Positions 5,352 to 7,481 of a stretch of 10,898 bases of DNA are shown here, one piece after another. The first letter of the stretch is position 1, and each line of letters begins with the position of its first letter. Origin of the DNA: Promethearchaeota archaeon (GTDB lineage: Archaea; Asgardarchaeota; Lokiarchaeia; Sigyniarchaeales; SOKP01); contig JBHLME010000142.1 of the NCBI GenBank assembly GCA_048938445.1, positions 1 through 10,898 on the forward strand, given 5' to 3'. Both the position numbers and the translations under genes were made by a program. The notes below the pieces were generated by a model. The model was not told where the DNA came from, did no database searches, and saw only the letters and a list, made by a program, of their open reading frames with translations.

Positions 5352-5879
5352 TTAATGCATGACCATTTTTGAATTAACAATTTTTTGGGTCATTTCTGTT
5401 AATGCATCAATAAAGATTTCATCAGAATAGTCTGAAAGTTCTATGAAAATTCCTCCATTCTCTTCAGTATCTCTCTTGATATTAGTTAAATCCAAAGATT
5501 CATCAATTTTTCCCTTATCTACACCTATTAATACATAAGGTATTTTTGTAATTAGTTCTTCATGAATTTCTTTAATTTGATCCTTAACTGCGCGATAACA
5601 CTCAGCATCTGATAAATCGAATGCAATTACAGCTCCCATCGCGCCTCTGTATAATGATTTTCTAAAAAACTTGAACGTTTCCTTCTCACAGATGTCCCAA
5701 AAAGATAAAGTTGCAATCTCTCCATCAAATAATTCAATATTTTTAATAAATACATTGACTCCTAAAGTAATACGATAATTACTCTCGAATGTAATTCCCA
5801 TTAATTCTCCGTAAGTGCTTTTTTTTTCATTAAAACCCCTATAATTAATGAAAATAAGCTTAAACTTGAAAGATTGCAT
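5352..5879 (-). CDS. Rab-like small GTPase-fold protein with degenerate nucleotide-binding motifs (pseudo-GTPase), 175 aa
   Basis: FKFKLIFI, FESNYRITLGVNV, TLSFWD, LYRGAMGAVIAFDLS and IPYVLIG match the Rab scaffold. G1, G3, G4 and G5 are all substituted. SD-like AAGGTTGA precedes the ATG. Confidence 0.85.
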   Translation of the reverse strand: MQSFKFKLIFINYRGFNEKKSTYGELMGITFESNYRITLGVNVFIKNIELFDGEIATLSFWDICEKETFKFFRKSLYRGAMGAVIAFDLSDAECYRAVKDQIKEIHEELITKIPYVLIGVDKGKIDESLDLTNIKRDTEENGGIFIELSDYSDEIFIDALTEMTQKIVNSKMVMH

Positions 5880-5935
5880 TCAACCTTATCTATTTCATTA
5901 AACTTGTCTAATTAATTTATTTATAGTGCTCTTAC

Positions 5936-5943
5936 TATTTAAA
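5936..5943 (-). promoter_or_regulatory. Putative TATA box (TTTAAATA) of the Rab-like gene
   Basis: Canonical archaeal TATA octamer on the minus strand. It would give a leader of roughly 30-35 nt containing the 5884-5899 motif. An alternative TTATATAA lies at 5958-5965. Confidence 0.35.
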
Positions 5944-6086
5944 CTATATACTCATTTTTATATAACGAAATAAAAATTTTCAAAAAACATTTTCAATATA
6001 TTTTATATTATTTGTCAAAACTCCCAATCAATTATATAAATATTTTTGAAATTTATATACATCAATGATACAACCATTTTTCTGTA

Positions 6087-6104
6087 AAGAAATAAGTATA
6101 TATA
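6087..6104 (+). promoter_or_regulatory. Putative BRE and TATA for the intergenic RNA
   Basis: Purine-rich AAGAAATAAG followed by TATATATA (6097-6104). The predicted start (~6127-6131) coincides with the 5' arm of the first helix. Confidence 0.4.
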
Positions 6105-6127
6105 CATAACTTTGATTATTTTACTAA

Positions 6128-6305
6128 AAAGGATAAGGTTATAAAAATCTAAAAAATGGTTCCTGCCATCATCCTGGATTTTTGTCTTTTGGTTAGTGTA
6201 GAGATGCACTTTAAATTTTCCTTATCCTATTTCATTTTAGGACTTCGTTGAAGTCCTGATGGCAGGGACCTCACTTAATAAAACTCAAGTAGTAAAATAG
6301 ATAAG
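6128..6305 (+). ncRNA. Candidate structured, pseudoknotted ncRNA of unknown family (domain 1)
   Basis: Helices 6130-6138/6220-6228 (9 bp), 6141-6150/6176-6185 (10 bp, 2 GU), 6195-6200/6205-6210 (GAGA tetraloop), 6237-6246/6250-6259 (10 bp, 1 GU) and 6158-6171/6257-6270 (14 bp, 1 GU). All imperfect pairs are G-U on the + strand. Confidence 0.6.
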
Positions 6306-6317
6306 TAGAAAGAGATC

Positions 6318-6434
6318 GAGAAAAAATAAAGTCCAAATAATCTTTCTAAAAATTGGGAGAGATATAAATTTTTTTTATTGTTGGGTAAACATTCAGGGGG
6401 AATTGTTTTTAATATTTTTGACTTTATTTTCCTC
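6318..6434 (+). ncRNA. Second stem-loop domain (three-way junction), possibly part of the same RNA
   Basis: Perfect 11 bp helix 6323-6333/6420-6430, extended by GAG/CTC, enclosing hairpins 6340-6347/6356-6363 (2 GU) and 6387-6394/6400-6408 (one bulge). Confidence 0.4.
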
Positions 6435-6515
6435 ATTTAAACATTAAAATTCATTCATATTTAAACGTAACTTTAATTCAATTGGATCTTGGAGTTATAG
6501 AAAGATAATTGATTT

Positions 6516-6532
6516 TAAAATAAAAAAAAAAA
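6516..6532 (-). terminator. Oligo-T terminator after the Frag1/DRAM-like gene
   Basis: A11 run at 6522-6532 on + (T11 on -), 3 nt beyond the stop codon. Confidence 0.55.
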
Positions 6533-6535
6533 GAT

Positions 6536-7249
6536 TTATCTAAATTTCACTAAGAGAAAAATACCTGTTTCAATAAACCAAATTAACAACGCAATAACTG
6601 CAATCCACTCCCAAATCCGAAAATTGTAGGTAGTTGGACTTGTATCAGTGATCATAAATACAAAATCAAAATTACTTGATATAAGGAGCGGGATACCTTG
6701 TACGAGAAAGATTATAAACACTAATCCCGCACTCAAACCTATAAATGGTTGAAATTTTGGAATATCCTTGTTGAGTAGCATTATAAAACTAAAGTTTCCA
6801 ATCATTAAACCAACATTAATGAAAAATATGGTTGCAGATATCGCATGATACAATGGATAATCAGCCATATTAAAAACAGTAAGGAAAAAGCCTCCTAATA
6901 ATGCGAATAATCCATTAGTTAAAGGAAGAAGTAACCAATTTTTCTGTTTTTTATTTCCAGGTAGCATTTTTCTAATTAAATCTATTATAAGAGGAATCGA
7001 GCATAATAACGTTGAAAACATTCCCATCATGAAAATAATTTGAGAACCATTTCTTGCAGCTCCAATACTCGAAATCCAAATAGATCCAATGGTCACTGGT
7101 GCTTCAGTAAAATGATATAACATTGTTCCTACTGATAACATGTAAATTAATAATATTCCTCCTAATATCCCAAAATATCCCCCTTTATATTTTTTTAAAG
7201 GTTTATCTAATCTTTTTGTATTAATTAAATCTATCATTAGATCTAACAT
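6536..7249 (-). CDS. Six-TM membrane protein, Frag1/DRAM/Sfk1-like or DUF998-like
   Basis: Six hydrophobic helices with WISSIG after TM1, YHAISATIFF at TM4 and IWEW at TM6, matching the ISxxG / H-x3-A-x2-FF / EW signature. The start is likely ATG 7249 (AAGGTG upstream). The longer 7357 extension is low-complexity, promoter-like AT sequence. Confidence 0.75.
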   Translation of the reverse strand: MLDLMIDLINTKRLDKPLKKYKGGYFGILGGILLIYMLSVGTMLYHFTEAPVTIGSIWISSIGAARNGSQIIFMMGMFSTLLCSIPLIIDLIRKMLPGNKKQKNWLLLPLTNGLFALLGGFFLTVFNMADYPLYHAISATIFFINVGLMIGNFSFIMLLNKDIPKFQPFIGLSAGLVFIIFLVQGIPLLISSNFDFVFMITDTSPTTYNFRIWEWIAVIALLIWFIETGIFLLVKFR

Positions 7250-7481
7250 TTCTATAAATACACCTTGGTTTCTATTATTTAAAAAATATATTGATAAATA
7301 GTACTTATTTTGATTTATTTGAATATAAATGTTTAATATTAACTGCTGAATTATCATTCAATGTTTTGAGAAAGAAAAAAATCAAATCATTATTATAAAT
7401 ATTAAATAATTCATTTAATATGCAATTAAGGCATATATTACTTCATATAATTATCAATGTTGAAAATGAATATTTAAAATA

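Follow-up and report, generated by a model that had tools for sequence, protein, structure and literature searches.

Which kind of molecule, if any, is encoded between two minus-strand genes of a Promethearchaeota archaeon? The locus in question, positions 5880-6535 of contig JBHLME010000142.1 (assembly GCA_048938445.1), lies within a stretch of 10,898 nucleotides (nt) that we call the window. An earlier reading of its sequence alone (hereafter the sequence-only reading) had placed there a plus-strand RNA with a promoter of its own, five helices and a possible pseudoknot. In this study, we explored the folding, the relatives and the genomic setting of this RNA. On balance, we lean towards the view that positions 6130-6275 of the plus strand form a lineage-specific, independently transcribed gene for a structured small RNA of ~120-150 nt, a trans-acting ribonucleoprotein or regulatory RNA.

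A family of covarying RNAs

Comparison across genomes establishes the RNA family itself, the strand on which it lies, its helices P1, P2 and P3 (table 1), its distribution and its synteny. The window copy coincides with an island of GC content (0.32-0.40 across 6140-6290, against 0.12-0.25 in most flanking 60-nt windows), the whole genome (256 contigs, 4.63 Mb) having 29.6% GC. On the plus strand, the 151 nt of 6125-6275 fold with a minimum free energy (MFE) of -45.5 kcal/mol and a z-score of -4.00, no shuffle out of 200 being as good, and the 149 nt of 6130-6278 reach a z-score of -4.89; the minus strand of 6125-6275 gives only -2.59, with 5/200 shuffles as good. The stable plus-strand fold expected from the sequence-only reading is thus borne out, and all five helices that it drew can be written in the window, with five G-U positions across them on the plus strand. 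Its 14-bp helix, P1, is present as drawn; yet it is no add-on to another fold, but the closing stem of the MFE structure, enclosing P2 (6195-6210) and P3 (6239-6257). P3 as originally drawn (6237-6259) adds a U-A and a U-G pair. The GNRA cap proposed for the hairpin 6195-6210 is indeed GAGA in the window, but is kept only in close relatives, other genera having longer loops.

The window's genome contains six paralogs including the window copy, the five others being 75-81% identical. They have in common a 26-nt block, CCUGGAUUUUUGUCUUUUGGUUAGUG, in the strand J1/2 between P1 and P2 (identical in 4/6 copies, the remaining two differing from it by 2-3 changes), a pyrimidine-rich strand and a pyrimidine/U run after P1, whereas P1, P2 and P3 differ among them by compensatory and G-U changes. 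Covariation was examined in 35 sequences found with a covariance model, in an alignment fitted to the model structure and therefore favouring that structure. Both sides change in 21 of the 24 pairs: 9/11 in P1, where 98.4% of cells are paired, 6/6 in P2 and 6/7 modelled pairs in P3, the most variable helix. Standard pairs occupy 94.5% of the cells, compared with 25.6-42.0% when partners are slid, and none of 500 shuffles reached the observed pairing values. RNAalifold, applied to a MAFFT alignment of the paralogs and hence independent of the model, agrees with the support for all three helices. Throughout these 35 sequences the inner 17 nt of J1/2 are identical. P1 and P2 together show 33 G-U cells on the plus strand against 9 non-standard ones; since each such G-U would turn into an A-C mismatch if the minus strand were read, a plus-strand RNA fits, in agreement with the selection on that strand deduced earlier from the window and with the z-scores.

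Members vary in their outer parts. P3 is absent from the 115-nt members of one genus (L040-L043) and from L175, a weak match of 97 nt (29.9 bits) that belongs to another family, and seems dispensable. A hairpin is inserted in J2/3 after P2 in L036, L138 and L140, that of L036 being repeated directly in its leader, and L132 and L142 carry an insertion of ~30 nt within a CCUCC block. In most members J2/3 reads GAUUUCGCCCUCCUC/UUAUCCUAUUUUAUUU; comparison with its paralogs leaves the window copy with a 4-nt gap there and without the CGCCCUCC block. Given this missing block and a 3' tail that reads UCACUUAA, the window copy is a somewhat diverged paralog.

How widely is the family distributed? A first covariance model (R1), built from the six copies, recovered these from their own genome together with one weak seventh (L015, C200:847-965, 24.4 bits, E 0.03), 1.7 kb from the copy on the same contig; this one and a ~40-nt sense fragment of the RNA at C57:10988-11027 (L008) may be decayed copies. 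R1 detected the RNA in 34/36 genomes of the window's GTDB family and, in a phylum-wide sample, in 25/25 genomes of that family, with one weak match in 125 others. A broader model (R2) detected it in 123 of the 131 genomes sampled from the family, with 1-18 copies each, and in 4/14 genomes of a sister family (genera g20, g23 and g24), whose copies are diverged (J1/2 reads GAAUUUUAUUUUGUCUUUUUGGAU). R2 found none in five genomes from two further families of the same order, and gave two weak matches in 121 genomes elsewhere in the phylum. An exact scan for a core 19-mer in 185,579 species genomes returned at least 117 stretches, almost all with a complete RNA; 80 of them had titles, nearly all those of metagenome-assembled genomes (MAGs) named Promethearchaeota or Promethearchaeia.

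Some records among these deserve separate mention. Among the matches listed, a few that contain the entire RNA bear the titles Hermod-, Hod-, Odin- or Thorarchaeota; these labels are record titles only and do not obviously agree with the GTDB-based samples, where the RNA is nearly restricted to a single family within the order of the window. The core 19-mer was also seen in contigs from MAGs that bear the names Patescibacteria, Saccharibacteria and Clostridia: L122 has two model matches (54.1 and 34.7 bits) and seems to be an archaeal contig that was wrongly assigned to a bacterial MAG, L094 has one weak match (25.2 bits) and L065 none. Four contigs from viral collections carry the 19-mer as well, of which one matches the model, partially (L164, 32-127 on the minus strand, 34.6 bits, model positions 22-113, without P1), and the other three do not.

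The genomic surroundings were compared across 142 distinct loci. The same divergent gene for a membrane protein of ~130 aa lies upstream in 41, the same radical SAM gene (PF04055 with PF23545) downstream in 38, and a further upstream gene of ~160 aa is common to 34; other groups of nine and eight loci have fixed neighbours of their own. Because these paralog groups keep their neighbours across species, the pattern points to several paralogs, each inherited vertically. The 124-aa gene upstream of the syntenic copy was considered as a possible RNA-binding protein and rejected, being a membrane protein without a Pfam family.

Does the RNA belong to a known class? At the gathering threshold of each family, none of the 4227 models of Rfam 15 matches anywhere in the window, and a search of 5880-6540 relaxed to E<=10 yields no more than four hits, all at chance level (16-22 bits, where the thresholds are 39-80); ARAGORN found neither tRNA nor tmRNA in the window. 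C/D box small RNAs (sRNAs) have a C box (RUGAUGA) near the 5' end, a D box (CUGA) near the 3' end and a K-turn. The window has CUGAUGG at 6256-6262, but its paralogs read UUGUUGG, UCUGUGG or UUGGUAG, and a C box is absent from the 5' end of the RNA. H/ACA sRNAs carry an ACA (ANA) triplet directly 3' of the lower stem, together with a pseudouridylation pocket; here the triplets after P1 are ACC, UCC, AUC, UCA, CCC and others, without a conserved ANA. RNase P RNA was found on another contig of the genome (C161, 120.5 bits, above the cut-off), and an SRP-like RNA (of the signal recognition particle) at C135:7602-7859, with 67 bits, under the Rfam cut-off of 96.5. As candidates for both thus occur elsewhere in the genome, a diverged RNase P or SRP RNA was rejected. 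The sequence-only reading, which had seen no hallmark of tRNA, 5S, SRP, RNase P, C/D box RNA or hammerhead, agrees with these results, and its proposal of a new Asgard class of noncoding RNA (ncRNA) is supported by the negative Rfam search, the folding z-score, the existence of covarying homologues and the nature of the dispersed copies, which are not those of a mobile element (see below). Since it fits no Rfam family and no class tested, we rate it as a new RNA class, "new" applying to the class, mechanism aside.

Table 1. Features of the RNA locus and its neighbours in the window.
Feature	Position	Strand	Description
BRE/TATA-like box (TFIIB recognition element and TATA box)	6087..6107	+	AAGAAATAAG TATATATAC; read from sequence
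P0	6130-6138/6220-6228	+	9 Watson-Crick pairs
P0 5' arm	6130..6138	+	AGGAUAAGG; probable 5' end of the RNA
Px, first hairpin of the sequence-only reading	6141-6150/6176-6185	+	10 pairs, 2 of them G-U
P1, 14-bp helix and closing stem	6158-6171/6257-6270	+	1 G-U; conserved core 6158-6168
J1/2, U-rich invariant strand	6173..6198	+	CCUGGAUUUUUGUCUUUUGGUUAGUG; runs into P2
P2 hairpin	6195-6200/6205-6210	+	6 bp, GAGA loop, 1 G-U
J2/3, pyrimidine-rich strand	6211..6238	+	P0 3' arm within it (6220-6228)
P3 hairpin	6239-6246/6250-6257	+	8 bp, GUU loop
3' tail	6271..6278	+	place of the family's pyrimidine/oligo-U run; window reads UCACUUAA
Neighbour on the upstream-coordinate side	5352-5879	-	Ras-like protein, 175 aa
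Other neighbour	6536-7357	-	273-aa protein without a Pfam family

The leader helix and the putative transcript ends

The outer helix of the sequence-only reading, P0, does cross the 14-bp helix P1, as described there, and has counterparts outside the window. Many relatives have, 9-40 nt before P1, a segment that could pair with the 3' half of the RNA's own J2/3: in the consensus AAAUAAAAUAGGG matches CCCUAUUUUAUUU, a variant has UAAUAUAGGG with CCCUAUAUUA, and a divergent subfamily (e.g. L056, L085 and L147) keeps the complementarity with GGCAGAAAUUUUC and GAAAAUUUUUGCC. The register of the window copy is shifted by 5 nt relative to these. MAFFT left the leaders unaligned, and P0 was tested without alignment and on a hand-picked set, all P0 tests being inflated by the relatedness of the sequences. 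Across 112 loci, a contiguous helix with a score of at least 22 was found in 27% of the 55-nt leaders, compared with 1-6% for six other flanks of equal length. Leaders also match their own J2/3 better than permuted ones: the mean cognate score for 111 sequences was 18.16, against 16.25 +/- 0.30 (maximum 17.3) when permuted, and was reached in none of 5000 permutations (a first version of the test gave 18.46 against 16.09-17.14). Both motifs could be read in 20 of the 111, where an A in J2/3 stands with a leader U in 12/14 cases and a G with a leader C in 5/6, the sixth being a G-U. The outer helix is thus upheld as a complementarity specific to its position and to its cognate strand, evident in a minority of members only.

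P0 and P1 could form either an H-type pseudoknot or a two-state switch. For the window copy, three states differ little in energy: the P1 fold (-45.5 kcal/mol), the earlier combination of P0 and Px (-41.6 kcal/mol), which leaves the 5' arm of P1 within a loop, and the P1 fold with the arms of P0 left free (-42.6 kcal/mol), to which the P0 duplex would add -11.9 before any pseudoknot penalty. We infer that P0 and P1 may coexist. Px fared differently: complementarity of the Px type to the invariant strand shows a weak excess in the A-rich linker of relatives, being enriched to 40% at -55..-1 and equally, to 45%, at -110..-56, there arising from an A-rich promoter-like box, and the hairpin, without comparative support beyond the window, was dropped as a conserved helix.

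Where would the transcript begin and end? The BRE/TATA-like box ends ~23 nt before 6130, which makes 6130 a plausible start. About ten relatives have an A-rich/TATA-like box ending 22-25 nt before the P0 5' arm, and the spacing was broad in an automated scan that used as anchor the 14-mer GATAAAAATTTAAA, which precedes the RNA in several relatives. At one mismatch or less this 14-mer has 103 hits in the window's genome, where base composition alone predicts ~53, and it seems to be a promoter box in general use in the lineage; only 4 of 39 tRNA genes have it upstream at up to three mismatches. A promoter and terminator scan with bacterial-type models, which are not suited to archaea, gave nothing above shuffles. 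At the other end, most relatives carry [A/U]CC(C)UUUU directly after P1. Because the tail of the window copy reads differently, its 3' end may lie further downstream, where a T-run occurs at ~6371-6379.

A proposed role in trans and its rivals

P1 encloses the U-rich J1/2, the hairpin P2, the pyrimidine-rich J2/3 and the hairpin P3. We propose that P0 would join the 5' leader to the 3' half of J2/3 across P1, and that this scaffold of four helices would present two constant single strands. Such an RNA would act in trans, either within a ribonucleoprotein or as a regulatory RNA; the unrelated and in part convergent genes found downstream (see below) speak for this. J1/2, being invariant, may be the docking site of a constant partner. 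CCUCC is the anti-Shine-Dalgarno pentamer, and the C-rich strand of most members that contains it may pair with a purine-rich, Shine-Dalgarno-like RNA, with P0 masking or unmasking part of it. We infer the transcript ends, the protein partner and any target.

Two known systems resemble parts of this proposal. Anti-Shine-Dalgarno sRNAs (the bacterial RsaE type and Methanosarcina sRNAs) likewise expose an unpaired CCUCC strand on a stable scaffold, as most members here would, and are free-standing genes with paralogs that share constant strands; the present RNA, however, greatly exceeds typical sRNAs in structure and in conservation, the window copy and one subfamily lack the C-rich block, and a scan of the window's genome for complements found no target. 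For the docking strand, the first candidate partner would be an Sm-like (SmAP/LSm) protein, because the A-U5-G between helices resembles an Sm site, whose consensus is a single-stranded purine-A-U(4-6)-G-purine between helices. G-A-U5-G-U is invariant between P1 and P2 in the 35 sequences, the last position being U and not a purine. RNAs of the Sm class of small nuclear RNAs (snRNAs) and those bound by archaeal SmAP/LSm proteins have in common with ours such a tract in a U-rich strand between helices, as well as being small, stable-looking and multi-copy, with an apparent promoter of their own and a 3' U-run. They differ in the residue after the tract and in the Rfam snRNA models, which are unlike this RNA, itself known from sequence alone; moreover, the RNA is confined to one family, whereas SmAP proteins are, to our knowledge, present in all archaea. 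A full scaffold for an Asgard-specific Sm/LSm-type ribonucleoprotein, with a ring on the A-U5-G and a pseudoknot presenting the second invariant strand, would extend this analogy, and we consider it very improbable.

Several points weigh against this explanation as a whole. By a strict contiguous-helix criterion P0 is evident only in about a quarter to 40% of the members, and in 18 hand-picked sequences, where 92% of its cells are paired (a circular figure), two-sided changes occur in only 3 of its 13 pairs. For the start at 6130 the basis is a TATA-like box, in a genome of ~30% GC and with a spacing rule that is not general, and the 20 sequencing runs that contain the stretch are all DNA metagenomes, with no RNA run among them. 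The invariance of J1/2 among the 117 loci fetched by exact 19-mer is circular, the fair figure being that of the 35 model-found sequences. A pairing role based on CCUCC cannot be universal, given that the CGCCCUCC block is missing in the window copy and replaced in one subfamily. 11-mer complements of J1/2 and J2/3 in the window's genome came down to the six genes themselves, the sense fragment on C57 and a few matches of 13-14 nt. Finally, the likeness of the U-rich strand to an Sm site is imperfect in its U after the G.

The main rival is a self-cleaving ribozyme with a nested double pseudoknot like that of hepatitis delta virus (HDV), in which cleavage at the 5' edge of P0 would set the 5' end; we regard it as unlikely. 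HDV-like ribozymes have the strand order P1-P2-P3-P1'-P4-P2', with a P3 of 3 bp, an L3 of 7-8 nt, a P1.1, a catalytic C in J4/2 and a G-U where cleavage takes place. Here P0 and P1, which cross, both find support and follow that order (P0a-P1a-P2 hairpin-P0b-P3 hairpin-P1b), in topology only, and, set beside the HDV fold, the two hairpins, a size of the same order and the dispersed copies agree too. Invariant junction strands and many copies without a common neighbouring gene would suit a ribozyme, and processing would explain the variable distance from box to P0. Yet the details diverge. The equivalent of the HDV P3 is a hairpin of the wrong size, 6 bp with a tetraloop or a longer loop, and long invariant single strands of 22-26 nt and ~20 nt occupy places where next to nothing is unpaired in HDV-like ribozymes. 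P0 begins with A-U pairs, with no conserved G-U at +1, and the strand from P3 to P1 reads UUG, UCG or CUGA, without a conserved C in this last junction. Rfam ribozyme families give no hit even at E<=10, P0 is not evident in many members, and the comparison involves an RNA seen so far as DNA sequence only.

A leader acting in cis (a riboswitch or attenuator), with P0/Px and P1 folds that would alternate to control a downstream gene, appears quite improbable to us, a riboswitch being the least likely of the classes that the sequence-only reading had listed. The two folds of the window copy are close in energy, P1 followed by a U-run resembles a terminator, and in the commonest syntenic locus the radical SAM gene is co-directional, 200-600 nt after the RNA. 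Outside this main syntenic group, though, the downstream genes are unrelated (Ras-like, CN hydrolase, FdhD, TFIIB and others), and the nearest downstream open reading frame (ORF) is convergent in 4/6 copies of the window's genome, the window copy included, and in 8/35 loci overall; unrelated and often convergent genes make a leader unlikely. The distance to the next gene also ranges from 50 to >600 nt, and the P0/Px fold, by leaving the 5' arm of P1 in a loop, would not prevent P1 from forming.

A DNA-level repeat, i.e. a miniature inverted-repeat transposable element (MITE) or another non-autonomous mobile element with inverted repeats that give the impression of helices, is already largely refuted and highly improbable. 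Six dispersed copies in one genome and up to 18 in relatives, with a P1 that resembles a 14-bp inverted-repeat pair, are what it would predict. Similarity stops at the unit, however, and neither terminal repeats nor target-site duplications are seen at its edges; differences between the arms are compensatory or G-U, sensible only on the plus strand; viral contigs with the core 19-mer give one partial match in four; and the genes that recur beside the 142 loci include neither a transposase nor a recombinase. With the duplications missing and synteny conserved across genera, a MITE, which the sequence-only reading had named as what dispersed copies might turn out to be, is excluded as the source of these copies.

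Least credible of all is a small hydrophobic peptide starting at ATG 6156: an ATG does stand directly before P1 in 6/6 copies of the window's genome, opening hydrophobic ORFs of 14-33 codons in both reading frames, but a 1-nt indel in the P1 5' arm puts the invariant 26-nt block into different frames among paralogs without altering its nucleotides, one paralog stops after 14 codons, only 21/35 relatives have the ATG (AAG or TTG in 14/35), and substitutions in the P1 arm covary with the 3' arm instead of being synonymous.

Neighbouring genes and significance

The flanking proteins of the window copy have no orthologues among the fetched loci. The Pfam Ras match of the 175-aa neighbour begins only at profile position 23 (E 1.1e-15), its N-terminus has KLIFINYRGFNEKKSTYG at the position of the P-loop, and degeneration is apparent in its DxxG and NKxD motifs; the protein is thus a probable pseudo-GTPase, in line with the pseudo-Rab gene named by the sequence-only reading. 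No 16S rRNA, whose 3' end was sought for comparison, is assembled in this genome.

Also comparable are orphan Rfam motifs, likewise found from sequence and covariation alone, with conserved junctions and without a known ligand or partner; in contrast to these, the present family matches none of the Rfam 15 models and is confined to one Lokiarchaeial lineage. In what was available of the literature searched, including 2026 preprints on intergenic elements, we found no description of such an RNA, which supplements could nevertheless list, and no Asgard ncRNAs beyond rRNA expansion segments, selenocysteine insertion sequence (SECIS) elements and Argonaute guides.

The covariance model is ready for annotating genomes of this lineage, and the RNA itself is a short, easily synthesised target for tests of self-cleavage, of binding by Sm-like proteins and of ligand binding. 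No relatives closer to eukaryotes than the Asgard archaea are known; if the Sm scaffold were true, it would be a prokaryotic snRNA-like particle in these closest archaeal relatives. Overall, presence in 123 of 131 genomes of the family, a 17-nt strand identical in 35 of 35 sequences, three covarying helices, a fourth that crosses the closing stem, and syntenic copies together make up the conservation profile of a core cellular component.

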